NCBI GenBank assembly: GCA_043826565.1
Contig: JBDRPX010000037.1
Coordinates: 5,669 to 69,668 of the forward strand
Direction of reading: 5' to 3'
From: Candidatus Omnitrophota bacterium
GTDB lineage: Bacteria > Omnitrophota > Gorgyraeia > B26-G9
DNA: 64,000 bases
Shown here: one piece after another, positions 13,649-51,846 of the stretch
Layout: each line of letters starts with the position of its first letter
Position numbering within the stretch: position 1 is the first letter of the stretch
Notes under the pieces: generated by a model
Databases searched by the model: none
Told to the model about the DNA's origin: nothing
What the model saw: the letters and a program-made list of their open reading frames with translations, nothing else
Position numbers and translations under genes: made by a program

Positions 13649-13657
13649 TGGTATACT
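13649..13657 (+). promoter_or_regulatory. extended -10 promoter TGGTATACT upstream of gene A
   Basis: tggtatact at 13649-13657; the same 9-mer recurs upstream of the sixth paralog (40478-40486). Confidence 0.4.
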
Positions 13658-13749: not shown

Positions 13750-16700
13750 ATGATGACCAGAAAAAGATTAAAGACTAGACGCTATACGCTGTGCGCTAAA
13801 CGCTTGGTTGTGTTTTTCCTGGTGCAGGCGATGGTTGCCGGCCCTTTGCCGGCGGCGCCGGCGGAGATGCTTACTCCCGCAATCCAAATTAACCATTCCG
13901 GACTGCAGCAGGCTTTTGTCGAAGCCGGCCAAGGAGAAAATTTTCTGCGGGAGTTTGTGGTCCGCAGAAAAGAGATATTATGTGAAGAATATTACGATAA
14001 GCAGAAACTATTACGTAAGGCGGCATATTCTACCGGAGAGATATTTGCGCAGTTTGATTATGACCAACACCGTCAGCTGCAGCATCCTGAAGCAATAGTT
14101 GATACTCTGGTTAACGCTGTTTTAACCAATACGGATATAGGAAAACAACAGGCCGCGGCGTATGTTTTAGAAACTATCAGAATCCCCAGGCGGGATCCCG
14201 GCATAGTTCGGACGGTCAGCAAAACAGATTTAAAAGTAATTGCCGAGAGCCTCGGTATTGCGCTGCACGGAGCTGATATTGATACGATAATTTTAAGTAA
14301 TGGGATCGTGCTTATGCCGGAGGGATATTCTCCCTCAAAAGTACGTGCTCGGGAACAGGTTAGCTTTTCTACTTTGTATTCCGGGGAACGGGCGTTTGGA
14401 GAATATCTTAGCCGGTTGGAAGCGCGGCGTGAGTCCGGGGAAAATAATTCGGCTTTGGATGAGGAGATTGTAACTCTTCGAAAGCTTAGGGATATGCGTA
14501 GATATATGCTTCGATTAACAGAAAAGGCGGATCAGGAGCGTGATTCGGTGATACCGATGCAGGAATATATTGCCGAGAAGGTAAAAACTGAATGGCTGGC
14601 TTGTGCCGGACAAGAAGGCCTTAGTAAAGACCAAGCTTTAAAATCAATCCAACAGGCGCGTATGCTGAACGTCGATTTAAAGTTAGCAGAGGATTTGCTA
14701 GATTTAGCCAAAAGGCATGAACAGGCTTTAGAAAACGAGTGGGTAATTGTTGGGCAGGAATTGCTTCAGGCACAGGAATTGTCCCGGCAAAACAGTAGTC
14801 AGGCAAACAGACAAATAGCTGATTATTGGCAGCGTTCTCACGCGTGTTTAGAACAACAGCTTGAGCAGGCCAAAGAGGAACGGAAAAAGGCTGAGCAGAA
14901 TTTTGAGGAAGAACGCACTTTACAGCTTAGGCAGGTTGAGGAGCACAGAAAAATCGTCAGAGATAATTCTCCGCACCAGATTTTGTTCGCCAAAAAAAGG
15001 AATATTAACACGATTACTTATCGCTTATTAACAATAGCCTTATGTTGTGCCGGGATAGAAGAGTTTAATGAATTAGACATAGACCTGGGCGCGGCCATTA
15101 TTATCGAGCGCGGAGAAAACGGGCCGTTTACAACCAGAGATGATTTTGTGCGGCGGATGTGCGAACGTTTAGGCGCGGATAAGAAATCGTTGATGAAAAA
15201 TATCTGCAAAAATTTCAGTAAGCTTACTATCCGCTTTTCCGCTGAACCTGTCGGAGAGCTGGAACTGGGGGTTGCCAGATATTATATGGACACGATGGAC
15301 GAATTACAGCGGGCGAAAGAACGATTTTCTTACCTGCGGCAGAGGCTGCATCAGGCCCAAGAAGAGCTGAGAGTTGCTTTATATCAGGAGTTAAAAATAA
15401 ACAATTCGTTTGCTGCGGCTGTGAGCGGTTATCCTGAATTGCAGCTGGATATTGAACGGACAGTTTCTTATTGTGAACGCAGTAGAGTTTCCTTCTCTGA
15501 TTATCATTCGCCAAAGTCTGAGTTTATTTCGGTTTTGCATGCTTTACAAAAAATATTTTCAAAAAGAGAGAACGCGGTTAGTTCCCGGATTGATTTCTAT
15601 ACCAATATTATATTTCAATTAATAGGCAGGCTTAGTTACTGGGAGGAAAAAGAAGATAAAGGGCTGAAGTTTTCTTCGAAAGAGATCCATGAATTTGAGC
15701 AGATAAAAATAATGTTGAGACTGCGCAAAATTGCGGAAAGCGGGCGCTATGTTTCGGACATCCATTGTTTTCAGCGTTTGCGGGATGAAGTAAGCAGGAT
15801 TAACTATACGGATGTATTACCGGGTTATCTGTCTACGGTAGCGATGAATGAGACATTATATGCCCGGGTGAATTCTCCGTGGAACATATTGATGAAAAAT
15901 CACCGGCGGGAGGCTCTGACGATGATTCCGGGAGCGGATGATGCGGTTCTTTTAGGAGTGCCGGCAAGGCATATCCTCTCCGAAGAACAGTCGCATCGAA
16001 TATTGGAGATCCCCATAGGATGGGAAATAGAGTTTACTTCGTCACAGCGGTATTTGCCTCCGGTGCCGCGGGAAAAATGGATAGATGCCATTATTCCCAA
16101 CGCCATAGAATTGCACGATAAAGGAGTTATTCTGGCGGATTTGCACAGGTTAAAAGAATATAATCTGCAGCCGACCTGGAGTTGGCGGACACAGCTATTG
16201 ATGCTGCGCAGAGTTATGTCCTTGGCGGGATTTAGCGGGACGCAGGCGGATTCTTTGCAGATTAATGTAGGGATTAAAGAAAAGGATTGGCAGATATTAA
16301 CTCCGGTGATGCGGGAAGACCTGGAAACCGATGCGCACTGGCTAATGTTTAATATTGTAGCAGCTTATGTCTCACCGGGAAGGATTGAACGCAAAAAAGT
16401 GGATAAAGTAGTCCAGGCAAAAGATGTTCAGGTTGTAGATATCGACGGAGAAAAATACCGCCGTTTCGAATATGCGTTTTGTGATTTTGAGAATATCGAA
16501 ATGATCGCGCCGCTGGTGCAGTATGGCCATACTTGTTTATTTTATTATTACTATGTGAGAAACGAATATGAACTGGGAAATTATAATGTTCCCGAATTAT
16601 ATAAGAAATTAGCCGCATTGGGAGAAAAATTAAGAAAGGCGGCTGACCGGGAGGATCTGGTAGGATTATTTGGTATCCAGCTGGATAAAGCTGGTACATA

Positions 16701-16905
16701 CCGGGAAAGCAGTTTGTTGACTCACCGGGAAAGAGGATCTAAACAGATTTTACAAATTAAAGGTATGTTGGATAATTTTCTGCGGGAATTTTGTGATCTT
16801 GCCGGATTACCCCGGGAAGTTGTATTGCCTGCAGAAGAACAAAAGCTTGTGCAGAAATTGAGTGATGAGGGATTTGAGATATTAATTATTGAACAGGCGA
16901 TATAG
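13750..16905 (+). CDS. large secreted protein, member A of EQAI-terminus paralog family (coiled-coil/Q-E-R-rich central region)
   Basis: signal-peptide-like N-term (LVVFFLVQAMVAGPLPAAPA), post-signal motif MLTPAIQINHSGLQQAF, C-terminal ...LIIEQAI-stop. Confidence 0.7.
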   Translation: MMTRKRLKTRRYTLCAKRLVVFFLVQAMVAGPLPAAPAEMLTPAIQINHSGLQQAFVEAGQGENFLREFVVRRKEILCEEYYDKQKLLRKAAYSTGEIFAQFDYDQHRQLQHPEAIVDTLVNAVLTNTDIGKQQAAAYVLETIRIPRRDPGIVRTVSKTDLKVIAESLGIALHGADIDTIILSNGIVLMPEGYSPSKVRAREQVSFSTLYSGERAFGEYLSRLEARRESGENNSALDEEIVTLRKLRDMRRYMLRLTEKADQERDSVIPMQEYIAEKVKTEWLACAGQEGLSKDQALKSIQQARMLNVDLKLAEDLLDLAKRHEQALENEWVIVGQELLQAQELSRQNSSQANRQIADYWQRSHACLEQQLEQAKEERKKAEQNFEEERTLQLRQVEEHRKIVRDNSPHQILFAKKRNINTITYRLLTIALCCAGIEEFNELDIDLGAAIIIERGENGPFTTRDDFVRRMCERLGADKKSLMKNICKNFSKLTIRFSAEPVGELELGVARYYMDTMDELQRAKERFSYLRQRLHQAQEELRVALYQELKINNSFAAAVSGYPELQLDIERTVSYCERSRVSFSDYHSPKSEFISVLHALQKIFSKRENAVSSRIDFYTNIIFQLIGRLSYWEEKEDKGLKFSSKEIHEFEQIKIMLRLRKIAESGRYVSDIHCFQRLRDEVSRINYTDVLPGYLSTVAMNETLYARVNSPWNILMKNHRREALTMIPGADDAVLLGVPARHILSEEQSHRILEIPIGWEIEFTSSQRYLPPVPREKWIDAIIPNAIELHDKGVILADLHRLKEYNLQPTWSWRTQLLMLRRVMSLAGFSGTQADSLQINVGIKEKDWQILTPVMREDLETDAHWLMFNIVAAYVSPGRIERKKVDKVVQAKDVQVVDIDGEKYRRFEYAFCDFENIEMIAPLVQYGHTCLFYYYYVRNEYELGNYNVPELYKKLAALGEKLRKAADREDLVGLFGIQLDKAGTYRESSLLTHRERGSKQILQIKGMLDNFLREFCDLAGLPREVVLPAEEQKLVQKLSDEGFEILIIEQAI

Positions 16906-16998
16906 AGTGGATTGCAAATTGCAAATAACAAATTGCAGATTAAACTAATGAAAATAAAAAAACAAATAAACTACATAATAATATTTTTGCTGGTGCAG
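16891..16998 (+). repeat. 108-nt junction repeat copy 1 (3' end of upstream gene + spacer + 5' signal-peptide coding of next gene)
   Basis: gaacaggcgatatagagtggattgcaaattgcaaataacaaattgcagattaaactaatgaaaataaaaaaacaaataaac...ctggtgcag, near-identical to 19720-19827. Confidence 0.9.
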
Positions 16999-19734
16999 AT
17001 GATAGCAATGAACAATGTTGTTTTTGCTCTTTCTCCTCAAATTAATATTAAAGGGGCAGCCTTGCAGAAAATTTTTGAGAGTAATAAAAAACCGCAAACC
17101 AGCCAGTTAATGGAACATGATTCCGGGAGGGGATACAGAGTATTTGATTTGCCGGAAGGATATCGTGATATTACTGTTGTTTTGATCCATCGCGGGGCCG
17201 GTTTTGGGAACCGGGGTGCGGTTAATAACCTATTAGTTAGTTTACAGCATCAATTCCGCGGTAAAAATATTAGTTTGCGATTAGCTTATAGTTTGGGGCG
17301 GCCGGGAGAAGAATCTGATCAGGAACTGCGTATGCAACAGGAGCTGATTGCTCAAAGAAATAGTAAGGCAGAAGCTGAAGGCCTGCCGAAAATTGAATTG
17401 GAAACATATTATACATTTACCATGGATGGAACACCGGTCATATCGGGGCTTCGAAAAACTGATGTGGCGATTTATTTTGGGTATGATTCTGCGGAAATGT
17501 TGGATGTGGCGCAGGATGAAGCTGATTTTTTAAGAAGAGAACAGATGGATGCAAAACTGGCATTTCATATTCCGATTTATGCTACCGGATACAGGCTTCG
17601 CGATGTTGATTATGCCCGCATTCTCAGAGGGGGAACAATACACAGAGTTATTCCGACAGCTAATTTTTTAAAAGGAACAGGCCGGATTGTTATTAACCCG
17701 GAACTTGTTGCGAAAAGTATCAAAATTGACGGATTAAATAAACAAGATGTTTTGCAGGAAAGAAGAAAGTTATTAGATAAACTGGGAGTAACGGAGATAC
17801 CTGATGGAGCTGAAGAAACAACTTGGGCATTTGCTTATACCCATAATTACGGAAAACTGGAAGAGTTTTTAAGAAATTGTGGAAAAAGCAAACAAAAGAT
17901 AACTCTTTTTCTTGCTCCAGGATATCTTATTAACCGGACGGTTAAATATTATTATAAAGATAATATCCGGCAGTTATTGGAATATTTTAAGGCTATCCCG
18001 GACAATGTTAATATTGTATTCTTAGAAGAAAATTTAGAGCGTAAAGACGCATATAACCAGATCATGCTTTTATCAGGAGTGTTGACGGAATATGGTTTAA
18101 AAGGGGGGTTTCCCAATCTGATTACCGGCGATCAATCGACCAGTGAAGTACTTTCGGCGCGCAGATTATTTGTGCATGACGGGATGAATGCGCAGGATGG
18201 AGATGAATTATGGCAGGGGTTATTTGCCGGGCCGCTGCAGAGATTTACCGTGCAATACAATGACTTGGAAGATATAGATAATAATTGGCCTAATCTGTTT
18301 ACTGCTAATCCCCAGGGAATGCCGGGAGAGTTTTCTGTCTTTAAGGCCATGGAAATGCAGATGGAATTTATTGCGGCCATAGACAGTATTCTAGAGCGGC
18401 GCAATATTGTTGATCATATTGGAAAGACGATTGTTGCCGAGGCAAGCCGTCAGGCTGCGGATGAGAACCTGGAAGCGATGTTAGATACTGCAGTGGTATT
18501 AAGAGAACAGTTAAATGGTTCGGTTTTTGAAAAAGTTTCCGCAGATATTTTTCAGGATGTTTATGTCTGTGTAAATCCCCGGACAAACCAATTTGTTACT
18601 TTATATGTTCCGACCAACATTGCTCAGCAATGGGAAACTAGTAATGGTGAAAAAGGTAAGCGTTTTGGCGGCCAGTATTCAGGAATGGTTGAACTGCACA
18701 ACCTGACGGGTATCGTCGGTGGAGAGCAACAGAAGCTTACTTTGGCTTTTGCCCATCCGGAAAATGGATTAGAACAAAATAATGATTTATCTATTCCCGG
18801 CAAAAAAGATCCGATGCTTGCTTTGACTGATGAGACATTTGGTTCCGGAGAAATAGCTAACTATGTGCAGAGGGTGCGGAATTTAATTATGGGAGAAAGC
18901 ATTGAGATTGTTAATATCCATTCTGAGCAGGAATTTAATGATTATCTGGGGATAGCGCCGGAGGAACATTCTGCGATTTTGTATTCAGAACATCCGGAGA
19001 CAACCTTAAGAGTTATGTGTAAAAACTTTAATGAAGATAAACCGCTGGCTAATATTAGAAAAGAACATACTTTTGCCGCGCGTATTCAGGCTAATGGCCG
19101 GGAATATATTTGGTTTGCCCAATTCTCCATCGGAGATGATAAGCAGATAAGATATAATGAAGCATATTTAATGAAGGTATTAGAGGAAACTGAGCATAAG
19201 TACCTGGAAGTCGGCCATGGATATTATGATGTGCCTAAAAATCCTGTTCCCGGTCATTGCTGTATTGATCTTATGTATGGAATTGATAACCGCTTTCGAT
19301 TTCAGGAAGCGCATATTAAGCATGCCCGGGCATTATTTGAACTGCGGTTAAAAGCGCTGGATAAGCTCTATAAACCTGCTGCATTTGTTATTCCTTCCGG
19401 ACAAATAATTTCAGATATTGCATTGTATTTTTACGGCCGGTTTGGATTTTTGCCCTTGGACTACGGAGCCAGAGCAGATGTGACTTCTAAATATTTAATT
19501 CCTTACCGGATTAAATCTCCGGGAAAAATGATCGGGGAGGGGATGGAAGTTTTTGGTAAATATCTGATTATCGGAGCGTTTGGAGATTTTGCTCTGGTGT
19601 TGAGACCGCAAGGGATCAAAGGGAGTAAAAGACATTTTGATATGCCGGAGATGTTAAAAAATAGAGGTATTCCCATATCAATGCAGCAACCGCCGGCACG
19701 AAGACATCTGGAGCTTATTGAACAGGCGATATAG
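16948..19734 (+). CDS. large secreted protein, member B of EQAI-terminus paralog family
   Basis: [17 protein letters not shown] signal peptide; ALSPQINIKGAALQKIF motif; C-term LELIEQAI-stop; C-terminal ~150-aa domain (EYIWFAQ...GHGYYD...FGFLPL) is shared with member E. Confidence 0.75.
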   Translation: MKIKKQINYIIIFLLVQMIAMNNVVFALSPQINIKGAALQKIFESNKKPQTSQLMEHDSGRGYRVFDLPEGYRDITVVLIHRGAGFGNRGAVNNLLVSLQHQFRGKNISLRLAYSLGRPGEESDQELRMQQELIAQRNSKAEAEGLPKIELETYYTFTMDGTPVISGLRKTDVAIYFGYDSAEMLDVAQDEADFLRREQMDAKLAFHIPIYATGYRLRDVDYARILRGGTIHRVIPTANFLKGTGRIVINPELVAKSIKIDGLNKQDVLQERRKLLDKLGVTEIPDGAEETTWAFAYTHNYGKLEEFLRNCGKSKQKITLFLAPGYLINRTVKYYYKDNIRQLLEYFKAIPDNVNIVFLEENLERKDAYNQIMLLSGVLTEYGLKGGFPNLITGDQSTSEVLSARRLFVHDGMNAQDGDELWQGLFAGPLQRFTVQYNDLEDIDNNWPNLFTANPQGMPGEFSVFKAMEMQMEFIAAIDSILERRNIVDHIGKTIVAEASRQAADENLEAMLDTAVVLREQLNGSVFEKVSADIFQDVYVCVNPRTNQFVTLYVPTNIAQQWETSNGEKGKRFGGQYSGMVELHNLTGIVGGEQQKLTLAFAHPENGLEQNNDLSIPGKKDPMLALTDETFGSGEIANYVQRVRNLIMGESIEIVNIHSEQEFNDYLGIAPEEHSAILYSEHPETTLRVMCKNFNEDKPLANIRKEHTFAARIQANGREYIWFAQFSIGDDKQIRYNEAYLMKVLEETEHKYLEVGHGYYDVPKNPVPGHCCIDLMYGIDNRFRFQEAHIKHARALFELRLKALDKLYKPAAFVIPSGQIISDIALYFYGRFGFLPLDYGARADVTSKYLIPYRIKSPGKMIGEGMEVFGKYLIIGAFGDFALVLRPQGIKGSKRHFDMPEMLKNRGIPISMQQPPARRHLELIEQAI

Positions 19735-19827
19735 AGTGGATTGCAAATTGCAAATAACAAATTGCAGATTAAACTAATGAAAATAAAAAAACAAATAAAC
19801 CACATAATAATATTTTTACTGGTGCAG
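19720..19827 (+). repeat. 108-nt junction repeat copy 2
   Basis: about 2 mismatches versus 16891-16998. Confidence 0.9.
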
Positions 19828-21069
19828 GTATTGTTTTTAATTCCGCATGCTTTAGCTTTAGATGAATATACATTGTCCCCCCAGCTGGTGGTAGGCGGAG
19901 GTTTTTTTGGTGAAGCTTATCTGCGGTTATTAGCGCAGGACGAAGCGCGTTTAAGCCGGCAGGAACAGGAAATTTTCACGCAGCTTTTTGATGCGCTTGA
20001 AATAGACCTGAACAGTTTGGCTTGGGACACACAAGGGAATGATTATGATTTATCCGAAGTGCCGGTTGCTGATATTAATGAAGATACTTTGCGGGAAATG
20101 TTTTGTTTGCCTTTTAGTTATAAAATCGGTGGTACTTTAGGGATTATTCGTTATCAAAATTTTCCGATATTAATTTATCTTTGTGATCAAGTAAGGAACG
20201 TAACTTTTATTGACCTGACAAAATATTATCGTTCATCATTTGCCGCTAATTTAGGCTGGGGAATTAAACAGGATATATGTATAATCTTTAAAAGGAAGAA
20301 TTTTTTTAAAGTAAGTCAAATTGAAATAACTCATCCGTATGTTACCGTAGCTATCAACGGCAGCGGTGATCTTGCTCATATTACCGAATATGATTTTAGT
20401 GATGAAGAGGCGGATGTCTTCCCCAGAAGAAAGATAGAATTACCTTTATTGCCCGGGGTCTGGATGCCCAAAAGTACGTCAAGTTATTTAATTGCCGAGG
20501 CAACTGCAGAATTTGTGCGTCCGGGGATGAGAGTGCTGGTTATTGGAACCGGAGCTGGCCTGGAAGCGCGGATTGCCGCGGAAAAAGGAGCCTTGGTCGA
20601 TGCGGTTGATATTAAGAAGCTGGCAGTTAGAAATACAAAACTGACATGTTCAGAAGAAGAGTATGCGGTGCGGGTTAATGCTTTTGTTAATAATATGTTT
20701 CATGGCTTGGGAAAATATGATTTGATTATCTGGAATATGCCGCATTTTGTCGGGACGGAAGAGCCAAAAGAGGATTTTCCCGATTATTCCAATAGTTCTG
20801 ATTTTACGGGGAAAATATTGCGGGAATTTGCGCAAAACGTATGTTCGCATTTGAAAAAAAATGGAAAAGCTGTTGTGATTAACAAAAGCGATGAACAGGT
20901 GAAACAGATCCTGGAATATTTTTCGGGTAAACATGTTGAGGATTATGGGGTCTCTAAAAAACGATACTCTCAAGGGTATATTATAGATAATCAACGGGTA
21001 AAAAGATGGAAGAAGATGAGGCCTTTCCCGGAAGGGATAATAAGTGTTTATATGGAGCAGGCGGTATAA
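19777..21069 (+). CDS. secreted protein, member C of EQAI-terminus family, with class I SAM-methyltransferase-like Rossmann domain
   Basis: [17 protein letters not shown]; TLSPQLVVGG motif; VLVIGTGAGLEARIAAEKGALVDAVDI (motif I) and IIWNMPHF (NPPY-like motif IV); C-term VYMEQAV-stop. Confidence 0.7.
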   Translation: MKIKKQINHIIIFLLVQVLFLIPHALALDEYTLSPQLVVGGGFFGEAYLRLLAQDEARLSRQEQEIFTQLFDALEIDLNSLAWDTQGNDYDLSEVPVADINEDTLREMFCLPFSYKIGGTLGIIRYQNFPILIYLCDQVRNVTFIDLTKYYRSSFAANLGWGIKQDICIIFKRKNFFKVSQIEITHPYVTVAINGSGDLAHITEYDFSDEEADVFPRRKIELPLLPGVWMPKSTSSYLIAEATAEFVRPGMRVLVIGTGAGLEARIAAEKGALVDAVDIKKLAVRNTKLTCSEEEYAVRVNAFVNNMFHGLGKYDLIIWNMPHFVGTEEPKEDFPDYSNSSDFTGKILREFAQNVCSHLKKNGKAVVINKSDEQVKQILEYFSGKHVEDYGVSKKRYSQGYIIDNQRVKRWKKMRPFPEGIISVYMEQAV

Positions 21070-21073
21070 GTAA

Positions 21074-21105
21074 AGAGTAGTGAGTAGCAAGTAGAGAGTA
21101 GAGAG
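21074..21105 (+). repeat. tandem heptamer array (AGAGTAG TGAGTAG CAAGTAG AGAGTAG) directly after stop codon
   Basis: 7-nt period places TAG in all three frames. Confidence 0.7.
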
Positions 21106-21123
21106 AAAGATAAAAAGTAAATA

Positions 21124-23568
21124 ATGAAAATAAAAAAACAAATAAACCACATAATAATATTTTTGCTGGCGCAAACATTTTTGTTCGGACAGTGTGTTTG
21201 GGCCGGACAGACGGATACTCTTGCGCCGCAATTAAAGGTGTATACACCTGTTTTGCATAAAGATTTTCTCCAACAGATGTCTATTTCTGTTGTCCCGATG
21301 CTTGCTGAACATCTTGATAAATTAGATATCAAGGAGCAATACATAGACGGGAAAGAGGATACTTTAACATTAATTCGCCAGGCGCATGACGGGCTTATAA
21401 GAGCAGGATATCCGATTTCTTCCCGGATAGTCAAAACATATACTCCGGAATACTTGCATATTGACGGTTGCTCAGCTTTTTCAACGGGAAGAATTCAAAT
21501 GGTTTGTTTTCGGGTAAACGGAAATTTTGATCAAAAAAGCATTGCTATCCCGCGGCCTCATGATGAAGCATATTGTTTTTCTTTAATAAGCGGAGGAAAA
21601 GTTGTCGGCCATGGAGTTCTAGCCTATGATTACCATCATCCGGATACGGTATTTTTTAGATATGCTATACACGGCAGCCATTTTATTGTAGATGGATATG
21701 ATTTTACAAATCAGGGGTTTGGAACAGACAGCCTCACATTACTGGCGGCAATCATAAAAACCGGGAAGCTTTTTCCTGCGAATATGCGGAAAATGGAGTA
21801 TTTAGCCAGTAATGATGACCTTTTAAAATGGGGCAATTTTTCTCCCATTTATAACCGGATGAAGAAGTTTTTGCTGAAATCCGGATTTGTTGATGCCTCA
21901 GAAGAGAGAATTGCGCCGTTTTTTGATATTACTAAACAAAACATCGGATTTAAGTTAGGAAATAATGATGAAGGCAGTGTTGCCGGACAAAGAGTTTATT
22001 TGTCAGCTAGTGTTGCCGGCTGTATTGGTAAGCCGGCAAAATATATTCATGATGCTTTGCTGAAAGTACCTCCGGAACTTATTGCGGAAGCATATTACCG
22101 GCGTTTTAACTTATTATCAAATCCATATGGCAAGGAATTTCAAGGTTTGTGGGGCCGGGATGAAACCAAAGCTATAGAATTCCTTGCGAGAGGATATAAA
22201 ACATTGCATGATCTTAATAGTCAGGGCCATGTCCGGGTAGATTTTATTCCGCATGATATGAAAGGAGATGTTCCGGAAGGATTAGAAGGCATGGTTTTGT
22301 TCAGTAATTCCAAGAAAGCTTATCAGACTGAATTTGTAGAATGGGCATGGGTTCCGGAAGTAGAAGCATGGCTGCCGGTAGCAGATGAAAGCGCTAAGAC
22401 TTCGCAACGGCCGGCATTTATACGTGTTGTGCTTACCGCGGATAAAAAGAAAGTAGTAAGAGTAGCGAAGAGCCTTACAAAAGATAAGTTACAGGAACTT
22501 ATCTTAGAGCATGGAGATTGTATTGTCTGCGGCAGAGTTCCGCCAAGTGCTCACTTGTCACTTGTGCGTGACAGTTCTCTGGGCATACGTGAAAGCGGAA
22601 ACTATACTATTGATGGAAAAGGAAATAATTTGTATATAGCATCTCTTAGCCGGGAAGGGGTGCCGACCGGTTTTCAGTTTTTTGGGAACGGAGAAAAGGT
22701 TCCACTGCGGGTAGCTGTAAAAAGAAATCGTGAAGGGAAAGTGATGGAGAGGATCGAATCCCAGAGATATTTTGCCGGAGAAACATTGGCGCAGATATAT
22801 GCGAAAAAAGGGCAGTATTGGGTGATGCCGGTCTATGTGCAAACCCCTGTTCATTCAGCCCGGCATACAAAGATCCAGGCTGGCTCACGTTTTGTTGTGA
22901 CCGGAGAAAAAGGAAAAAAAATCAAGAGCGAAGTAACAGAAGAAGTGGAATATAATTATTATCTGGATGCGGCATATTCCGGAGCAGAGGCGCAGCTTTT
23001 GATCGGCCGCTCCGGGGTGCCGGTTTATTTATATGTTTCCGGTGATGTCCGGAAGGGGGTGCCGGCATTAGAGTGCTTGTTAAAATTGATAGAGGTGAGG
23101 AATAGCCGGGATGAAGTTATTGATGTTATAAACTCATCTAATGCCGAGATATCCCGGCAAATTCTGCAAATAGCAGTAAAAAATGCCCGGGTTAAAGATG
23201 GACGCGTAGTAGTAACACGAATACCGGTAGAATCCTCTTTTTTAAAACGAAGCACTTTAGCTGTACGCTGCGGCGGAGAGGAAATATGTGTTAATCAAAA
23301 ATTGCCGGATTTCCCCGGTCAAAAATATGCGGAGCTGGTTTATGGAAAAAATAAATTTGATGCGCCGGTTCCGATTAGTATCAGAATAGGATTTTATGAG
23401 GGTGATGATCCGCTTAATTTTAACAAAATAAAATTTCATGTGTTAAAGGAATTTTTCATTGAACGTGCGCAAAATAATAAGTTCTATGAGACCAGAGAAA
23501 CAAAGACTTTGGTGGAAACTGAAAAAATGCCGCTGGAAAATTTAACTATTCTGGAACAGGCGATATGA
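21124..23568 (+). CDS. large secreted protein, member D of EQAI-terminus family
   Basis: [17 protein letters not shown]; TLAPQLKVYTPVLHKDF; C-term LTILEQAI-stop. Confidence 0.75.
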   Translation: MKIKKQINHIIIFLLAQTFLFGQCVWAGQTDTLAPQLKVYTPVLHKDFLQQMSISVVPMLAEHLDKLDIKEQYIDGKEDTLTLIRQAHDGLIRAGYPISSRIVKTYTPEYLHIDGCSAFSTGRIQMVCFRVNGNFDQKSIAIPRPHDEAYCFSLISGGKVVGHGVLAYDYHHPDTVFFRYAIHGSHFIVDGYDFTNQGFGTDSLTLLAAIIKTGKLFPANMRKMEYLASNDDLLKWGNFSPIYNRMKKFLLKSGFVDASEERIAPFFDITKQNIGFKLGNNDEGSVAGQRVYLSASVAGCIGKPAKYIHDALLKVPPELIAEAYYRRFNLLSNPYGKEFQGLWGRDETKAIEFLARGYKTLHDLNSQGHVRVDFIPHDMKGDVPEGLEGMVLFSNSKKAYQTEFVEWAWVPEVEAWLPVADESAKTSQRPAFIRVVLTADKKKVVRVAKSLTKDKLQELILEHGDCIVCGRVPPSAHLSLVRDSSLGIRESGNYTIDGKGNNLYIASLSREGVPTGFQFFGNGEKVPLRVAVKRNREGKVMERIESQRYFAGETLAQIYAKKGQYWVMPVYVQTPVHSARHTKIQAGSRFVVTGEKGKKIKSEVTEEVEYNYYLDAAYSGAEAQLLIGRSGVPVYLYVSGDVRKGVPALECLLKLIEVRNSRDEVIDVINSSNAEISRQILQIAVKNARVKDGRVVVTRIPVESSFLKRSTLAVRCGGEEICVNQKLPDFPGQKYAELVYGKNKFDAPVPISIRIGFYEGDDPLNFNKIKFHVLKEFFIERAQNNKFYETRETKTLVETEKMPLENLTILEQAI

Positions 23569-23573
23569 TCAAA

Positions 23574-23591
23574 GAGTAGCGAGTAGAGAGA
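23574..23591 (+). repeat. GAGTAG heptamer repeat (AGAGTAG CGAGTAG AGAG) after stop codon
   Basis: same motif as 21074-21105 and 30676-30710. Confidence 0.6.
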
Positions 23592-23607
23592 ATATATAAC
23601 GTAAGAT

Positions 23608-25593
23608 ATGAAAATAAAAAAACAAATAAACCACATAATAATATTTTTACTGGTACAGGCGATGAGTGCTGGTTCCCTGGCTATTGCTGTTCCGGAAGAC
23701 CGGACTTTATCTGCGAAAATTATCATTAATCAGCAATCCTTGCAGGAAGTATTTGCCCGTCTATCTCAACAGGATGATGAGGTGTTACAATGGGGTAGTT
23801 CCCGTATTCCTAACTCTCTGCCTCAAGAAAGTATCCCCGCGGAAATGTGGCGGGATACTTTTAGCAGAAATCCGGTTTCTCGATATATTCAAAATATTAG
23901 AGATAATATTACCGGAGCAGATGTTGATATTACTGTTTTAGATTCCACGGCGCAGTTATTAGAGTATCTGGGATTGACAGAACCGAGAGATATTGTTTGT
24001 TCCGGATATCTTAGTGAGCTGCAGCTTATGTGTCAATCAGCGGAAAAGCCGGAGTTTGTCAAAATGGTGACGCAATTAAAACAGCTTATGCCATCACAAA
24101 TGCCTGTGGGTAATATGCTGGCAGCACGTATTTATAAGAATGGGTATGAATATATCTGGATAACCCAGGTGCTTCCCGATCAGTCTATCCCGCCGGATGA
24201 TTTTATTTTTAATGAAACATATTTAGTAGCTGAAACTCAAAAGGGAAGAAAGAAATATGTTGAAATAGGTCATGGTTATTATGGAGTCAGCGGAGTTCAA
24301 GGCGGAAGAATCGGCTTATCTTTTGGGATTGATGAGGATTATCAATCCCGGCATAGAAACGGCGGGAAATTCAGCCATGCGCATAATATATTTGAATTCA
24401 GGCTGCAGGCATTAGAGACACTCTTTAGGCCGAGTATTCTTATTGTGCCTCAGGCGCAGGCAACAAGTGCACCTGATTTTTCCCGGAAAACAGTTTTATT
24501 TTACGCCGGATTCGGGTTTCTGCCTTTAAAAGATTTTAGAAGGGAACAGCTGGTTAACGGATATCTTTTGCCGGTGAAAATAAACCGGACTTTGGCAAAG
24601 ATAAAAAATCCCGCGGCGGTTTTTGACGATAAGTTTATGTATAAAGCCGGCGACTTCATGCTGATTTTAAGAGATAAAAGAACGGAAATAAAAGATGTTT
24701 GCAGACGATACCGGATCTTTGATGAAGCCGAAGTCCGGCAATATGAAGCGCTGAATGCGCGTTACGGTCAAAACCCCTCAGCTTTAGATGACTCAGAAGC
24801 ATACGATCTGTTTGGGTATTTGAGTATTACAGGAAGGCTTAACCAGGGAAATAATTATGCCGTGCTTATTCAGAGAATCGGATGGCTGAAGGCTCAGGCC
24901 CAAAAAGGAGGAGAATTTAAACAGCAAATCGGCGGTAAATACATTGGCCATATTGTCGGGATGAACGATGTCTTGAATCCGGCAGCGCCGTATTTAGATA
25001 TTAAGCCCCAGGATACTGTGCTTGATATCGGTTTTGCCGTCGGCGGAGAAACGATTGGTTTAGCAGCAGCTCATCCGGAGGCTGATTTTGTTATGGCTAA
25101 CCCGGAACTGAGATTTGTACAGCATGCTGTTCGTCAGGCGGAATCTTACCGGCCTTTGTTAAATAATTTGCGGATTGCTCCAAAAGTTTTTGAGGAACTT
25201 GCTTTACCGGCACATTCGGTTAATCATATTATTATTCGTAACATTTTCTTTGACTTAGATGAGGTGAAGATAAAAGATATGCTGATAGAATTAATGCGCA
25301 TTGCCGCCCCGGATGCTACGATTGTAATTACCGGATATCGGCATTTAGAGAAAAATACACAGGAAAATGCTCGAGCTGGTATAAAACCTGAGTATAATCT
25401 GGAGTTATTGACAGAAGTATGTGCAGAGATGGGGATTAGTTATACGGTTGATCATCCCACATCTTTTCCTAATCGTGATGCGCGGATCAGGCTAATTCCG
25501 GCGAGTCGACGAAATACATTATTCGAAGAGACCCAAGCTGTGAGTTTAAAAAAGAAAGCAGAGCCAGCTGTTTTTGTCGAACAGGCAATATAA
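23608..25593 (+). CDS. secreted protein, member E of EQAI-terminus family; N-terminal half shares domain with B, C-terminal half SAM-MTase-like
   Basis: [27 protein letters not shown]; [18 protein letters not shown]; YEYIWITQ...GHGYYGV...FGFLPL; [14 protein letters not shown] (motif I); C-term VFVEQAI-stop. Confidence 0.75.
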
Positions 25594-34049: not shown

Positions 34050-34166
34050 ATCAAAAATCAAAAGGCAAAAGTCAAAATTACAAGTTACAAATCAAAATTA
34101 TTAAAAACTAAAAAAACAAAAGGCTTTAGAATTTTTTAAGTTTGAGTTAACTATAAGGTATTAAAA

Positions 34167-34745: not shown

Positions 34746-34901
34746 AATTAAATCAAAAGTCAAAGGTCAAAAGTCAAAAATGCAACTCAAAATTAAAAAG
34801 TGAGATGTGTTTTTTGCTTATTCTGGTGAAAGTAATTTTGCTTTTTGAATTTTGACTTTAGAAGATTATGTTGAATATTCTTAAGAAAGGAGCTTCAAAA
34901 A

Positions 34902-35378: not shown

Positions 35379-35413
35379 GAAACAAATTCAAAAATCAAAA
35401 GTCAAAATTCAAA

Positions 35414-36463
35414 ATGACAAATCAAAAATCAAAAATAATAAAAAATTATCCTGTAGGGGCGGGCCTTGCGTCCGTCCGGGACAAAAAGAATATTAGAGCG
35501 CTTGGACTTTTATCCGGCGGCCTTGATAGTATCCTGGCGGTTAAGGTTTTACAACAGCAGGGAATTGAAGTTACCGGCCTTTCCTTTACTACCCCGTTTT
35601 TTGGGTCAGCTGCAGCGGAAAAAGCTGCCGAGGCTTTAGGTATTGAACTTTTAATCGAGGATATCACCGAAGAGCATTTTGAGATGGTTAAAAATCCTCC
35701 CCATGGATATGGTAAAACAATGAATCCTTGTATTGATTGCCATGCAATGATGGTTAATGCAGCCGGGAAAATAATGAAGGATAAAGGGTTTGATTTCATT
35801 TTTACCGGAGAAGTTCTTGATGAACGGCCAATGTCTCAGAATAGAGGTTCCTTAGAAGTAGTTGCCAAAACATCAGGATATAAAGGATATCTTCTCCGGC
35901 CCTTAAGTGCAAAATTACTTAATCCGATTATTCCCGAGCAGAATGGGTTGATTGATCGCGATAAATTATTAGATCTCCGGGGACGCTCCCGAAAAAGACA
36001 GTTTGCTTTGGCCGAGGAATTTAACGTTACTGAATATCCTAATCCTGCCGGAGGCTGTCTGCTTACTGACCGCGGTTTTTCCCAAAGGCTTAAGGAATTA
36101 CTTTCGAAGGAGGAAAATCCCAGTATAAAAGATGTGCGCATGTTAAGAGCTGGCCGGCATTTTAGATTTTCCGATACCGTTAAATTATTAGTCGGCAGGG
36201 ATGAAAAAGATAATAAAAGACTTGAGGATCTTTATGATGGGTCGGACTATATTATGGACGCGGGGGATATTCCGGGGCCCATATGCGTATTAACAGGAAT
36301 TGATGCTCAGCTTTTTCTGAATAAAGCCGCGGCTATCTGTGCTTCTTATAGTGATATTGATGAAGGCTCGGAGTGTTTAATTATGGTAAGAAGAGGGGAA
36401 CACAAACAGCAGATAAAAGTTATTGCCTGCAAAGATGCCAGAGATCAAGTACCGATGCTCTGA
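35414..36463 (+). CDS. PP-loop superfamily ATPase with Cys cluster (tRNA thiolase / ThiI-TtuA-like; exact function uncertain)
   Basis: LLSGGLDS PP-loop motif; NPCIDCH cysteine cluster; N-terminus is encoded by the TCAAAA repeat region, so the true start is uncertain. Confidence 0.5.
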   Translation: MTNQKSKIIKNYPVGAGLASVRDKKNIRALGLLSGGLDSILAVKVLQQQGIEVTGLSFTTPFFGSAAAEKAAEALGIELLIEDITEEHFEMVKNPPHGYGKTMNPCIDCHAMMVNAAGKIMKDKGFDFIFTGEVLDERPMSQNRGSLEVVAKTSGYKGYLLRPLSAKLLNPIIPEQNGLIDRDKLLDLRGRSRKRQFALAEEFNVTEYPNPAGGCLLTDRGFSQRLKELLSKEENPSIKDVRMLRAGRHFRFSDTVKLLVGRDEKDNKRLEDLYDGSDYIMDAGDIPGPICVLTGIDAQLFLNKAAAICASYSDIDEGSECLIMVRRGEHKQQIKVIACKDARDQVPML

Positions 36464-39598: not shown

Positions 39599-40201
39599 AT
39601 GAAAATAACCCTGAAATCACTTTTAGCATCTATCGTAGCAATATTTATATGTTTCCTTTTAACTATCGGGTATTCAGATGTAAAAGGAGAAGAAGAACTA
39701 GCCTGCGTTTTAAAAGCGTCTAAAAACGTATTTAATAGCGGCGAAAATATAACTTTATTAGTAACTGTAAAAAATTATACCCACAAAGAGATTTATTTCA
39801 TAGACTATAAACAAAGGAATGCTCCGTTTGGCAGTACTATGCCGATTATAACTAATGATCAAGAGCAAAAAATCAATATTATTTGGAAGATATCTAAAGT
39901 ATATCCGCCTCTTCCTCCAACAGTTACAGCAATTAAAATCATTCCGGACGGAGAATGGACAACAAAAATTCAATTAAGCCCGGACAATCTGCGTTTAGTG
40001 CAAAAAGATGTAGATAGTTTCATGCCGCCGGGAAAGTATCAGATTAAAATTAACTTTAATCCGCCAGCTTTAGAAGTTTGCGAGATTAAAGTAGAAGAAC
40101 TTAGAAATCCGTTTGGATTAGAAGAATTGAAGAAAATGAATGTTGATTTTTGGTCTGGAAATGTTCAATCAAATGCGATTAATATAAAAACAATTAAATA
40201 A
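39599..40201 (+). CDS. hypothetical secreted protein
   Basis: N-terminal signal peptide MKITLKSLLASIVAIFICFLL; no recognisable domain. Confidence 0.45.
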   Translation: MKITLKSLLASIVAIFICFLLTIGYSDVKGEEELACVLKASKNVFNSGENITLLVTVKNYTHKEIYFIDYKQRNAPFGSTMPIITNDQEQKINIIWKISKVYPPLPPTVTAIKIIPDGEWTTKIQLSPDNLRLVQKDVDSFMPPGKYQIKINFNPPALEVCEIKVEELRNPFGLEELKKMNVDFWSGNVQSNAINIKTIK

Positions 40202-40538
40202 AAAATAGTAACTTGAAATAAAAGTTGATTTTTCGACTCAAAACTAAATTAGCAGTAATTAAGAAAGTATGATATACTTGAACATAGAGGACAGGCGAGT
40301 TCGTGTAGTACGTTTTAGATTTGGATCAAGAAATAAGTTCAAAAGTTAAAGTGTAGTGTAACACCGCCTGTCCTTATTTAATTCTACTAAAAGATCATCA
40401 AGCATAACCCCTTTAATACAAAGGGGTTATGTAATAATAGGCCATTCTGATAAAAATTTGCAAGAATATTTTTCTTATGGTATACTTTATAATCTTATTT
40501 TATATATTTAAAAAGATTTTCTAAACAAAAAGAAAGCA

Positions 40539-42947
40539 ATGAAAAAAATGTCCAAACAAAAATACATAATCTATATTGTCGCATTAATATTTGTGCTGAA
40601 TGTATCTTTAGCCCAGGCAGAAGAAGTATTTATTCAGAGGGATCACCTGGCGCCTCAGGTACAGATAGACAGTATTAATTTTAAAGATGCATATGCCCAA
40701 TTAAGTCAAAAAGATGCTGATGATGCGCGGCAGGCAATGTGGAGTTCTTTAAGAAACGTTTTAAACACACATGGTTTGAAATGGGAAAATTTTGCCAAAG
40801 CTCTTATGGATATAAGATCTAATCTGGACGTTTCTTTTGCTCAGAACCGGGGCAAAAAAACAGGGAAAATCACTAAAGTTGAAAATCTAGCCAGAATGCG
40901 CGGGCTTATTGACGCTTATTTTGGGGACGAGAGCCAATACGGAATGGTCCATATTGAAAAGAATGACGAGCGTCTTGCGGTGATTGACGCGGTTTGGAGT
41001 GATTTAAAAGAACAGTTCCGTTTATTGCAGGAAGCCGGCTTTGCATTTGAAGGGACAAAAGCGGTGGCCCGGGCATTTAAGCGAGATTGGAAAACTATTG
41101 GTAATGAATTTGGATATATTAAAAATGCTGTTGCCGTGGCTTATGCTTTAAAGCGTGGGGTTAGGCGTATAGATTCTTTAGATAAATTACCGGGAAATGA
41201 AAATATTGATAACCTGATCCAGGGGTTTTTTGATACTAACGGAACTTTGGGAATTAAAGATGCCAAGGCTGCCGAGGCTTTTTTAAATGCGGTAAGAGGA
41301 GATATGCAGGCGTATATGGATGAATTGATCGCCCGCGGAAGCAGGTTTAACGGAGTGGAAAGATTGCTTGAAGGCAGAAATATCGATAGGACGAAGATAG
41401 AGGCATTTAAGCAGGAAGCCAGAGAAATTATCCGCGATACATTTTCACAAAACAGATCGCTCAGGGAATTGCCGGAGATGGATGCGATAAAACCGCATAT
41501 GCGTAAAATCGCTACTATCGGCGGACAGAGAGAAAATCTGGGAATAACTGATAAAACATTAGGGAATGATATTATCAGAGCAATATGGGGTGATCTTTTA
41601 TTTTATTTTAATGAAATGAAGGCGCAAGGATCTGAGTTTAGCGGAGCTTTAGAGCTTGCTTCTAAAGTACAAGGTGCTGACCTGAATGCTATCCGCGATC
41701 AGCGGAATAATCTGCGCGCGGAAATTTCCCGGCAATATCATCTGGATCGTACGATTGAACATGTGGAAGATATTACTGCGGTATCCTTGGTTATGGAGTT
41801 TTTATTCGGGGAGAATATGCGGGGAGGCATAGCTAAAATCGGGAATCCCACTACAGCCCGCGCAATACAAACTGCTTTGATCCATGAATTGCAAATATTC
41901 TTACATGAATTGTCCGGAGACGGAGTAAAAATTCCGGCAGAGCAATTATTTTATGAGGAAAACAAAGGGCCTGTTGCCGGAAACTCGCTGGCGGCTTTAG
42001 CCGAATCTTTACGAAACAGGAATGTAAGCCCTGACCAGTGGAATGAAATGATGAGCGCGTTTAAATGTATGCAGAGAAATATTGATTCGGACCATCCTTA
42101 TCCGCGGGCATATGAAAGAGCTCAATCGCCTAATCTGGTTGACCAGTGGCTGAAGCAGTTTAGCCCGTATTATTTTCCGGCAATAACGGATTCCGCAGCA
42201 TTGGCTGAACTCCACCAGGTATTATTGACGGTTTTTTATGATCAACATGGAAATGCGCGGGATCAGCACATGGCTTTGTCTTTAGGATCGCTGGCAAGAA
42301 AGCAGATTACCAAAAAAGAGTGGCTTGAACCGAGAAAAGAGCCGGAACCGGATGGTGCATATGTTATTGAAGATGCTGATCTTGATTCCGCAGATTGGGT
42401 AAATCTTATATACAGCCCAAATGCCCATGGTATTGCAGGAGAAACAGTGGCAAGTTTACAAACTGTTTTAGATGGGTATAATGAAAATATAGATATTATT
42501 ACCCGGGAACAGTGGAGTGAGATTGCCGAGGCTTTTGCGGTTATGAATGGAGCGACTCAGGACGGACCGCATTATCCTGCGGAATACAACAGCCAGGTTG
42601 TGGATGATTGGTATAATTCATTTATTTTTGTTTATACCGACCGTGTTAACGGAAGGTATGCAAGGAATTTTCCGGATGCTTTAAAGCAGCTGCTGATCGC
42701 AGCTTTTTATCGCGATAATGGCCGGGCCAGGGATAAAAGTGAAGCCTTAACATTTACTAAGGCTATTGGTAATATGTTGACCGCGGAATCCAGATATACA
42801 AGAATACGGAAAAAACTGTTGGCAGAACGTGTTCCGGAGCTTGATCTGGATGCCTATCTGAATGAAAATCCTGGGGACGGCCCGCAACAGATGTTTCAGG
42901 AATTTGGAATTAATAGAGCGGCTGAGTTAGTGGAAAACGCCATATAA
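40539..42947 (+). CDS. large secreted protein, diverged sixth member (F) of the EQAI-terminus family, with internal tandem domain duplications
   Basis: signal peptide KQKYIIYIVALIFVL; HLAPQVQIDSINFKDAYAQLSQKD motif; C-term AELVENAI-stop; two pairs of internal repeats about 90 aa each. Confidence 0.65.
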   Translation: MKKMSKQKYIIYIVALIFVLNVSLAQAEEVFIQRDHLAPQVQIDSINFKDAYAQLSQKDADDARQAMWSSLRNVLNTHGLKWENFAKALMDIRSNLDVSFAQNRGKKTGKITKVENLARMRGLIDAYFGDESQYGMVHIEKNDERLAVIDAVWSDLKEQFRLLQEAGFAFEGTKAVARAFKRDWKTIGNEFGYIKNAVAVAYALKRGVRRIDSLDKLPGNENIDNLIQGFFDTNGTLGIKDAKAAEAFLNAVRGDMQAYMDELIARGSRFNGVERLLEGRNIDRTKIEAFKQEAREIIRDTFSQNRSLRELPEMDAIKPHMRKIATIGGQRENLGITDKTLGNDIIRAIWGDLLFYFNEMKAQGSEFSGALELASKVQGADLNAIRDQRNNLRAEISRQYHLDRTIEHVEDITAVSLVMEFLFGENMRGGIAKIGNPTTARAIQTALIHELQIFLHELSGDGVKIPAEQLFYEENKGPVAGNSLAALAESLRNRNVSPDQWNEMMSAFKCMQRNIDSDHPYPRAYERAQSPNLVDQWLKQFSPYYFPAITDSAALAELHQVLLTVFYDQHGNARDQHMALSLGSLARKQITKKEWLEPRKEPEPDGAYVIEDADLDSADWVNLIYSPNAHGIAGETVASLQTVLDGYNENIDIITREQWSEIAEAFAVMNGATQDGPHYPAEYNSQVVDDWYNSFIFVYTDRVNGRYARNFPDALKQLLIAAFYRDNGRARDKSEALTFTKAIGNMLTAESRYTRIRKKLLAERVPELDLDAYLNENPGDGPQQMFQEFGINRAAELVENAI

Positions 42948-50246: not shown

Positions 50247-50939
50247 ATGATTATGCAGAGAATAATGTATCGTATCGCGTGGGTGGCCATGTCGTTATTG
50301 ATTTCCATAGGTTTATATATGAAAGTAGACATAATCAGTAAAGGCGGGCCGGTAATGATTCCGATAATTTTGTGTTCTATTTTCGCGCTGGCGATAATGC
50401 TCGAAAGAGCAGTAAGTTTATATCGTTCAAAAATAGATACAAATAAGTTTATGGATGAAATAACCACGGCCTTAAAACGCAATCGAATTAACGAGGCCTT
50501 GGATATTTGTGAGCAGACCCAAGGACCGATTGCCCGGATCTTAAAAGCGGGAATTTCTAAACATGACCGTCAGCGCCACGAAATTAGAGAGGCAATTGAA
50601 GACGCGGGATTACATGAGGTGCCTAAGCTGGAAAAGAACTTAAGCGCCTTGGCAACGATTGCCCATGTCAGCCCGTTGTTGGGATTATTAGGCACGGTTA
50701 CCGGGATGGTTTCTACATTTCAGATAATTCAGCAAAAAGCGGTAGCCATGTATCCGGTGGATCCATCTGTTCTGGCTAAGGGAATATGGGAAGCGTTAAT
50801 TACTACCGTAGCCGGGCTTATCGTGGCGATCCCTTGTTTTGTCGCTTATAATTATTTGGTATCGAAAGTCCAGAATTTGGTAGTGGAGATGGAAGTTTCC
50901 GCGACTGATCTGGTTAATATACTTACGCAGCGAAGATGA
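50247..50939 (+). CDS. exbB: MotA/TolQ/ExbB proton-channel protein
   Basis: three TM segments; TIAHVSPLLGLLGTVTGM motif. Confidence 0.8.
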   Translation: MIMQRIMYRIAWVAMSLLISIGLYMKVDIISKGGPVMIPIILCSIFALAIMLERAVSLYRSKIDTNKFMDEITTALKRNRINEALDICEQTQGPIARILKAGISKHDRQRHEIREAIEDAGLHEVPKLEKNLSALATIAHVSPLLGLLGTVTGMVSTFQIIQQKAVAMYPVDPSVLAKGIWEALITTVAGLIVAIPCFVAYNYLVSKVQNLVVEMEVSATDLVNILTQRR

Positions 50940-51843: not shown

Positions 51844-51846
51844 GCG

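Follow-up and report, generated by a model that had tools for sequence, protein, structure and literature searches.

A pair of short terminal peptides shared by otherwise unrelated, probably exported proteins of Omnitrophota

The window analysed here is a stretch of 64,000 nucleotides (nt; guanine-plus-cytosine, GC, content 39.8%) from a metagenome-assembled genome (MAG) of Candidatus Omnitrophota (NCBI locus tags ABII88_, Logan run SRR26275510). Five genes, called A to E below, form an array in the slot between malQ and hflX, and a sixth, F, which encodes a hypothetical protein (NCBI ABII88_10655), is located downstream of hflX at a distance of 13.7 kb, in the interval between a bamE-like gene and uvrA. 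An earlier note on this DNA had singled out the open reading frame (ORF) of F, 802 amino acids (aa) long, as an unlinked relative of A–E, and it is present as described. The bodies of F and A–E are unrelated (the best BLAST match of F among them is C, E=0.21), and the likeness resides in the ends: a bipartite signature at the peptide level, consisting of a motif behind a Sec-type leader and a six-residue C-terminal tail, occurs on unrelated bodies in six genomes. F is the unlinked sixth member of this family within the window, and there is little doubt that it is a true one. The family, defined by its ends and not by its body, appears from its sequences to be an undescribed group of exported proteins specific to an Omnitrophota clade. 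The two ends together may constitute a new Omnitrophota sorting code for effector-like enzymes, and for this sorting and effector reading as a whole the chances seem about even. The features needed first are as follows.

40539..42947, + strand: coding sequence of F, 802 aa, ATG start
40539..40619, + strand: predicted Sec signal peptide of F, aa 1–27, read from the sequence with crude scoring
40635..40709, + strand: post-signal N-motif of F, aa 33–57, qrdhLAPQVQIDsinFkdAYaqlsq (hidden Markov model, HMM, E=0.002; hhalign P=2e-4)
42927..42947, + strand: C-terminal tag of F, L-V-E-N-A-I plus stop; consensus [LIF][LVI]-E-Q-A-I-COOH
13750..25593, + strand: array in the malQ–hflX slot, with A at 13750–16905, B at 16948–19734, C at 19777–21069, D at 21124–23568, and E at 23608–25593

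F begins with MKKMSKQKYIIYIVALIFVLNVSLAQA, continues beyond the predicted cleavage with EEVFIQRDHLAPQVQIDSINFKDAYAQLSQKD, and ends in ...AELVENAI-stop. Its leader has an n-region with four Lys and no Asp or Glu, a 12-residue hydrophobic core with a mean Kyte–Doolittle hydropathy of 3.0, and A-Q-A in front of EE. Neither Cys nor RR is present in it, so there is no lipobox Cys at +1 and no twin-arginine pair, and the marks of a lipoprotein or a Tat substrate are absent. A K/R-rich, acid-free n-region, a hydrophobic core, and a small-x-small site are found in 12 out of 12 family members, all signal peptides and cleavage sites being assigned by sequence rules only. The signal peptide that the earlier note saw in F is therefore real as a prediction, and its likeness to those of A–E is of this generic kind; the special resemblance that the note had claimed was not borne out. 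Eight of the 12 leaders (those of A–E and of three members from other genomes, L002, L007, and L008) have a Gln inside the hydrophobic core, in the form [LI]-[VI]-Q (FLLVQ, VLIQ, IIQI, FLVQA; for example at 21124–21204), which would be unusual for ordinary signal peptides, and F has an Asn at a comparable place (FVLN).

One alternative to the sorting code starts from these leaders: the N-terminal segment may stay uncleaved, so that the proteins are periplasmic enzymes tethered to the inner membrane and the shared ends are structural parts of a membrane-proximal module. It draws on the rule-based nature of the predicted cleavage and on the Gln within the hydrophobic stretch (LVQ/LIQ), odd for plain signal peptides. 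Such an anchor is nevertheless improbable, as small-x-small sites occur in all members, a core of ~12 residues is short for stable anchoring, the A-Q-A site of F in front of EE is textbook, and the spacing from core to motif, 0–26 residues, leaves no fixed module.

The first shared end, the N-motif, starts 0–26 residues past the predicted signal-peptidase site in the different members, and its family consensus is t-L-s-P-x-i-x-I-N-x3-L-x3-f (tLsPxixIN~~~L~~~f). Written as a pattern of ~20 residues, it reads L-[AS]-P-x-hydrophobic-x-hydrophobic-[NQ]-x3-L-x3-[FY], to which F conforms when [NQD] and [LF] are allowed; the motif of F, HLAPQVQIDSINFKDAY, spans residues 36–52, of which LAPQVQIDSINFKDAY covers 37–52. 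An N-motif HMM was trained on 11 members, with F and all signal peptides left out, and of the 1597 ORFs scored, F was the top match outside the training set (E=0.002, 14.3 bits; next match E=1.2). Likewise, hhalign places the N-motif profile on residues 33–57 of F with P=2e-4. Thus, the LAPQ-type motif that the earlier note had seen after the cleavage site holds up under a profile comparison of the kind that the same note had proposed. A visual resemblance between D/E-x-T-L-x-P-x-I-x-V and TonB boxes was also noticed, and it is visual only.

The second shared end is the tail. Within the last six residues, E is found in 9, Q in 7, A in 9, and I in 11 of the 12 members, and the final residue is Ile or Val in every one of them; conservation stops abruptly at position −6, and the sequence upstream is not conserved. 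In relatives the tail relaxes to hydrophobic-hydrophobic-x-x-[AS]-I, and F fits hydrophobic-hydrophobic-[EGA]-[QNEST]-[AS]-[IV]-stop with its LVENAI-stop. The ELVENAI-stop reported earlier can be read directly from the ORF, and such tails are unique to the family among the ORFs of the window: the six-frame set of 132 ORFs with 80 aa or more contains exactly six with the ending E[QN]A[IV], namely A–E and F, all on the + strand. In 160 other loci, the same ending was found in 1 of 3071 ORFs, and that one is a family member.

A tail of this kind could also be a degradation or quality-control tag for a PDZ protease of the Prc/CtpA type or for ClpXP, acting on unexported copies, with the N-motif as a pro-peptide or a chaperone site; the pair would then limit self-damage or time the activity. 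Tail-specific proteases and ClpX read such C-terminal signals, as in ssrA (...LAA) and MuA (...KKAI). The restriction of conservation to the last six residues, the small residue followed by Ile, and the free carboxylate all agree with this, and harmful enzymes would need a safeguard where no immunity-like small ORFs follow their genes. A degron alone, however, leaves the strict coupling to a second motif beside the signal peptide unexplained, the acidic and polar residues at −3 and −2 are unlike known ClpX motifs, and no protease gene is linked; this explanation is rather unlikely.

The coupling can be put in numbers. In a set of 1597 ORFs with 100 aa or more, the tail [AS]I was found in 29 and the N-motif in 19, and both were found together in 11 (12 with C, which ends in AV), while ~0.35 would be expected; none of 1533 ORFs from 80 unrelated control loci has both. 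The patterns were written after the members had been seen, so these counts overstate the significance.

The two ends are conserved as peptides, with varying codons. Leu is encoded by CTT, TTG, TTA, or CTG, Pro by CCC, CCT, or CCG, Ala by GCG, GCA, GCC, or GCT, and Ile by ATA, ATC, or ATT; the Ser codons vary too, and all three stop codons occur among the members. Therefore, selection acts on the peptides and not on the DNA. The leader and tail of F have no significant DNA identity with those of A–E, which confirms the divergence at the nucleotide level reported earlier. The array is a more complicated case. The first 46 nt of the leaders of B, C, D, and E (at 16948, 19777, 21124, and 23608) are identical apart from two positions, with abrupt divergence beyond, and a unit of tail, spacer, and leader recurs as a direct repeat of 113 nt, with 98% identity, at the A/B (16886–16998) and B/C (19715–19827) junctions, which indicates gene conversion and concerted evolution within the array. 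Accordingly, the earlier claim that the termini are under selection and not carried over from a recent duplication stands for F and the members in other genomes, and only in part for B–E.

These repeats are also what an explanation at the DNA level would build on, in which the ends have no peptide function and are by-products of gene conversion or cassette exchange through the junction repeats; short-read assemblies break at the array borders, too. Against it, F and all foreign members use different codons and stops for the motifs, F lacks significant DNA identity to A–E in leader and tail, and the motifs are kept in five other genomes. It is largely refuted and has very little probability left.

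The occurrence in other genomes was followed by anchoring on HflX, encoded directly downstream of E, and 80 loci were fetched in this way from species-representative genomes. Five related Omnitrophota genomes, whose HflX proteins are 63–70% identical, have proteins of the same architecture with other bodies in the malQ–hflX slot.

L007, 131–7219: 2362 aa, N-motif FLSPAINMG, tail LVEQAI
L002, 7980–9956: 658 aa, N-motif TLSPQIFLQ, tail LVGEAI
L003, 8662–9705: 347 aa, N-motif NLAPALAINQ, tail LLESSI
L006 (first member, L006a), 662–2242: 526 aa, N-motif TLAPALLINAD, tail LIASAI
L006 (second member, L006b), 2591–3631: 346 aa, N-motif KLAPSVVINQ, tail HLETSI
L008, 7196–9859: 887 aa, N-motif NLSPRLLINMQ, tail FLGQSI

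No family member is present in the slot of L004, L005, and L010, for which the upstream sequence was at hand, and the slot is also empty in L013 and L014. The motif pair found no match in Pfam, NCBIfam, the PDB sequences, or the literature searched for the tail sequence and for Omnitrophota secretion signals. A profile of the six N-termini had no match in a large protein collection even at E<=10, the profile being probably too short or compositionally biased.

The bodies carried between these ends are diverse. Those of C and the L002 protein are orthologous (36% identity over 350 aa, E=1e-70); both match HemK/MTQ2/MTS-type methyltransferase models (7.7e-17 and 9.4e-9) and have GxGxG and N-M-P-H. 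E has a weak match to class I methyltransferases, the bodies of the L003 protein and L006b are HAD phosphatases, and that of L007 combines DHH, a uridine-kinase-like P-loop (PRK), and CYTH. The bodies of A, B, D, F, L006a, and L008 had no match to the searched models. An AlphaFold2 model of C made without an alignment reached a predicted local distance difference test (pLDDT) score of 39.

Such cargo bears on whether the proteins leave the producing cell. In a second alternative, the tags dock the proteins non-covalently, or by strand complementation, on the producer's own outer membrane, peptidoglycan, or a pilus-like scaffold, and the cargo consists of surface or periplasmic enzymes. Docking by beta-strand addition accounts for a signal peptide with two short, strand-prone end peptides no less well than secretion does, activity outside the cytoplasm is possible for HAD phosphatases and DHH-type nucleotidases, and pilus and type II-like genes lie within the window. 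On the other hand, it is not obvious where S-adenosylmethionine (SAM)-dependent methyltransferases and a P-loop kinase would obtain their cofactors in the periplasm or at the surface. The members have no linked scaffold gene, and an anchoring domain, a lipobox, or a transmembrane segment is absent. Retention in the envelope is thus somewhat unlikely.

The members have their promoter in common as well. The sites upstream of F and A are as follows.

40458..40486, + strand: promoter-like site of F, TTGCAA, 17-nt spacer to the hexamer, TG-extended −10 element TGGTATACT, 52 nt upstream of the ATG
13649..13657, + strand: extended −10 element TGGTATACT of A, 92 nt upstream of A

Exactly two copies of TGGTATACT exist in the window, at 13649 and 40478, and the same 9-mer is found upstream of the members in L002 (55 nt), L003 (62 nt), and L008 (97 nt), while TGGTATAAT lies 49 nt upstream of L006a; the 2.5 Mb of fetched loci hold only 24 exact copies of the 9-mer. 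Thus, the motif that the earlier note saw before both F (40478–40486) and A (13649–13657) is indeed there, and four foreign members have it or a near-identical form too. Seven regions (those of A, F, L002, L003, L006a, and L008, and the empty slot of L010) can be aligned gap-free as TTGCAA-N14-ATGGTATACTTTA. TTGCAA-N14-ATGGTATACTT is located 49–97 nt upstream of F, of A, and of the members in L002, L003, L006, and L008, and from its sequence this element is a predicted near-consensus extended −10 promoter of the sigma-70 type. A common promoter argues for common descent and strong expression and is by itself no proof of shared regulation. In L010, the family promoter TTGCAA-N14-ATGGTATACTTAA (9579–9649) stands in a slot with no family gene, 374 nt upstream of hflX, which would fit the loss of a former cargo gene.

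Further upstream of the F promoter there is a second promoter-like site, TTAGCA-18-TATACT with TG, at 40249–40278, followed by two very stable hairpins (40287–40375 and 40402–40432; minimum free energy −49.8 kcal/mol, z=−7.0) with no U-run; an Rfam scan of this upstream region at a permissive threshold gave chance-level matches only. The layout of promoter, structured RNA, second promoter, and gene (40249–40432, then F) parallels the region before A. There, a cyclic di-GMP (c-di-GMP)-I riboswitch aptamer is found at 13216–13300 (67.5 bits; gathering score, 35) behind a promoter at 13152–13180 (TTGCTA-17-TATAAT with TG). On its 3′ side are a 12-bp hairpin with a U6 run at ~13325–13363 and, at 13381–13533, an ORF of 50 aa that has a hydrophobic segment near its C-terminus, and the second promoter and gene A come only after that ORF. 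From this order, the riboswitch would control the small ORF, and A–E only by read-through. The promoter of the riboswitch and the small ORF are weakly conserved in L003, and the riboswitch is absent from all related loci examined.

F lies outside the malQ–hflX slot, which is typical of the family and does not define it. The closest relative found (L082, UvrA 80% identical) has the same order dnaK-dnaJ-...-hydrolase-bamE-like-uvrA-TPR-ExbB, and there uvrA comes directly after the bamE-like gene; therefore, F and a 200-aa ORF in front of it form an insertion of ~3.6 kb.

39599..40201, + strand: 200-aa ORF with a signal peptide, in the F insertion immediately upstream of F; family motifs absent

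This ORF has no Pfam match, all fetched loci lack a homolog of it and of F, and 80 metagenome uvrA loci taken as a negative control contain neither a family member nor an F homolog. The GC content of F and of A–E matches that of the surroundings, and a recent foreign origin is thus not indicated by composition.

F itself stands alone. A word-indexed search of 5.8e9 proteins and an exhaustive phmmer search of 1.84e9 representative proteins both returned F alone, and Pfam, NCBIfam, PADLOC, PHROGs, and the PDB sequences gave no match; weak matches to GH72, gp41 mimetics, and a type II specificity subunit were far under the thresholds and were taken as chance. Inside its body there are two kinds of repeats.

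40977..41183, + strand: R1, first copy, degenerate, aa 147–215 (R1 HMM 12.0 bits; highest score of 300 shuffles, 3.9)
41244..41540, + strand: R1, second copy, aa 236–334, GIKDAKAAEAFLNAVRGDMQAYMDEL... (z=10.7 against the third copy)
41535..41837, + strand: R1, third copy, aa 333–433, GITDKTLGNDIIRAIWGDLLFYFNEM... (z=10.7 against the second copy)
42018..42413, + strand: R2, first copy, aa 494–625, PDQWNEMMSAFKCMQ...HPYP... (z=15.3 against the second copy)
42492..42908, + strand: R2, second copy, aa 652–790, REQWSEIAEAFAVMNG...PHYP... (z=15.3 against the first copy)

For the pairs 236–334 with 333–433 and 494–625 with 652–790, none of 300 shuffles scored as well. Hence, both pairs proposed earlier are real, and the proposed length of about 90 aa suits R1 (~97 aa, three copies of which the first is weak) and not R2 (~130–140 aa with a period of 158, two copies). 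An AlphaFold2 model of F without an alignment has a pLDDT of 36 and, at this low confidence, gives all-helical secondary structure only; on such a model F would be an ORFan cargo with internal duplications and helices throughout. As an effector it could serve in binding or scaffolding, which is guesswork.

The array members are also poor in relatives. All six proteins, A to F, are singletons or fall in two-member clusters; a search with E finds only E and B, and F, E, and B have no homologs outside the MAG. Exact-protein look-ups of A, B, and D gave no further contigs, and the PDB yielded nothing of use for A, C, D, and E. The Logan contigs of F and of a variant of A come from the same organism and end exactly at the array borders. 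No species-representative genome contains an exact copy of the leader DNA pattern of B–E, and therefore the MAG is not in that collection. For B and C, mechanical ORF calling starts at a TTG 12 codons upstream of the real ATG, which is the start that fits the NCBI lengths of 928 and 430 aa. A common ORFan domain of ~300 aa is found in B (aa 627–898, 18790–19605) and E (aa 70–355, 23815–24672), with 32% identity (E=4e-32) and a conserved E-[VI]-G-H-G-Y-Y, and it has no match in Pfam, NCBIfam, the PDB, or a large protein collection.

The array spacers are 39–54 nt long and contain no ORF. Tandem arrays with a 7-nt period (ATTGCAA, AGTAGAG, AAATCAA, TCAAAAG, or AAAATCA; 4–8 copies) occur in spacers just upstream of start codons, at 16911–16941, 19740–19770, 21069–21105, 30678–30707, 34048–34077, 34753–34779, and 35384–35436. 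Since they are located both within the A–E array and before housekeeping genes such as dnaJ, they may be a genome-wide feature of this organism. Elsewhere in the window, a trehalose/alpha-glucan cluster (trehalose phosphatase, GH65, GH13 enzymes, GH57, and malQ) lies upstream of the array at 72–13124, uvrA is followed, past a large TPR protein, by genes for ExbB and a TonB C-terminal-domain protein (50247–52458) in an arrangement kept in relatives, and a GspJ/GspK-like pseudopilin pair with a PilM-PilN fusion is found at 58219–61023.

If the two ends are a sorting code, the pathway may be imagined as follows. Sec would export the protein and signal peptidase I would cleave it; the new N-terminal peptide and the C-terminal tail would then serve as an address of short linear motifs, read together by a receptor. 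The most concrete candidate for this receptor is a carboxylate-binding module, PDZ-type or other, that belongs to an outer-membrane or type II-like secretion step. A PDZ-type reader is suggested because the tail is strictly C-terminal and only six residues long, with a small residue followed by Ile after non-conserved sequence. The cargo would leave the periplasm by way of this receptor, and the most likely destination would be another cell, host or prey, in which the cargo acts as effectors. Members of the Omnitrophota are abundant nanobacteria that have not been cultivated and are thought to live on other cells; attention has so far focused on their giant proteins and Tad pili (PMC10066038; bioRxiv 10.64898/2026.06.07.730766), and host-dependent, predatory, or parasitic traits have been described for them (PMC10066038). 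Delivery to another cell is favoured because the cargo is of a cytoplasmic type that needs SAM or adenosine triphosphate and because of these host-dependent traits of the phylum.

Further points agree with this sorting and effector reading. The malQ–hflX slot holds members with different bodies, as expected of portable ends, genes for type II or type IV pilus-like pseudopilins are present in the window, and the lack of outside homologs of F and of E and B, together with the F insertion, looks like the rapid turnover seen in effectors. Several others weigh against it. The sample comprises ~12 members from 6 genomes, taken from the fetched loci only. An HMM made from the window members alone gives non-significant E-values of 0.5–16 on individual foreign members, all six of which are within the top 38 of 3071 ORFs; the link across genomes is drawn because motif, tail, signal peptide, synteny, promoter, and one orthologous pair combine. 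The AlphaFold2 models of F (36) and C (39) are too poor to show a contact between the ends, the loci examined have no PDZ or secretin gene linked to a member, and a host cytoplasm is not required by every cargo, given that HAD phosphatases can function in the periplasm. A fuller version, in which a dedicated receptor delivers interchangeable enzyme and ORFan cargo to a partner cell, the malQ–hflX slot is a hot spot of effector swapping, and c-di-GMP control may be layered on top, is put forward only tentatively. A two-ended tag that can be read from sequence would offer a simple rule for listing candidate effectors, including ORFans beyond the reach of homology search, and would point to a sorting step outside all curated sorting-signal models.

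How does this signature compare with known sorting systems? Sortase, exosortase, archaeosortase, and rhombosortase substrates (LPXTG, PEP-CTERM, PGF-CTERM, GlyGly-CTERM) do not correspond, as the chain ends at the motif, with no hydrophobic helix behind it, and no sorting-signal model of NCBIfam gave a match. The proteins do not look like outer-membrane beta-barrels, since the last residue is Ile or Val and not aromatic, several bodies are Rossmann or HAD folds, and F is helical in its low-confidence model. Type I secretion of RTX proteins does not apply either: a Sec-type leader is present, no RTX or repeat family was matched, and the repeats of F are helical and 97–158 aa long. As for polymorphic toxins and contact-dependent inhibition, the A–E spacers contain no immunity ORF and F is followed by uvrA, and a search of the window members for PADLOC and toxin domains gave nothing significant beyond the methyltransferase-type match of C.

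Four other systems come closer. The N22 segment of curli CsgA and the N-terminal extension of chaperone-usher subunits are post-signal peptides of outer-membrane export. The family likewise has a mature N-terminal peptide with alternating hydrophobic residues (P-x-I-x-I-N) that could dock by strand addition, but those substrates are small amyloid or Ig-fold proteins, whereas the family cargo consists of enzymes or helical repeats of 350–2360 aa; no usher, CsgG, or chaperone gene is near the family genes. C-terminal peptides are read by DegS (YxF tails of outer-membrane proteins), Prc/Tsp, CtpA, the PDZ domain of GspC in type II secretion, and ClpX (ssrA, MuA). Such carboxylate-read tails are similarly very short and absolutely C-terminal, with a small and a hydrophobic residue behind non-conserved sequence, but the E at −3 and the Q, N, S, T, or E at −2 of the family fit no defined class exactly. 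The Plasmodium PEXEL motif (RxLxE/Q/D) and the oomycete RxLR motif are host-targeting leaders of eukaryotic parasites. They share with the family a short linear motif no more than a few tens of residues past the signal peptide, fast-evolving, often lineage-specific bodies, and expansion in arrays; they differ in being eukaryotic, in motif sequence, and in having no C-terminal tag, and the likeness is one of sequence layout.

The cargo of type IX secretion in Bacteroidota is alike in combining a Sec signal with a C-terminal element on many unrelated bodies, with the genes often in arrays. The type IX signal is a folded beta-sandwich domain of ~70–100 aa (PMC11285876), in contrast to the family tail of only six residues with a free carboxylate and a second motif beside the signal peptide; indeed, the six proteins of the window have no Pfam or NCBIfam match to a type IX C-terminal domain (~80 aa, Por_Secre_tail type). 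Taken together, the family falls outside each of these defined systems, and by analogy its logic resembles that of type IX cargo and of the host-targeting motifs of parasites. The motif pair, absent from the curated models and papers searched, would be of a known kind, short sorting tags on secreted, effector-like proteins.

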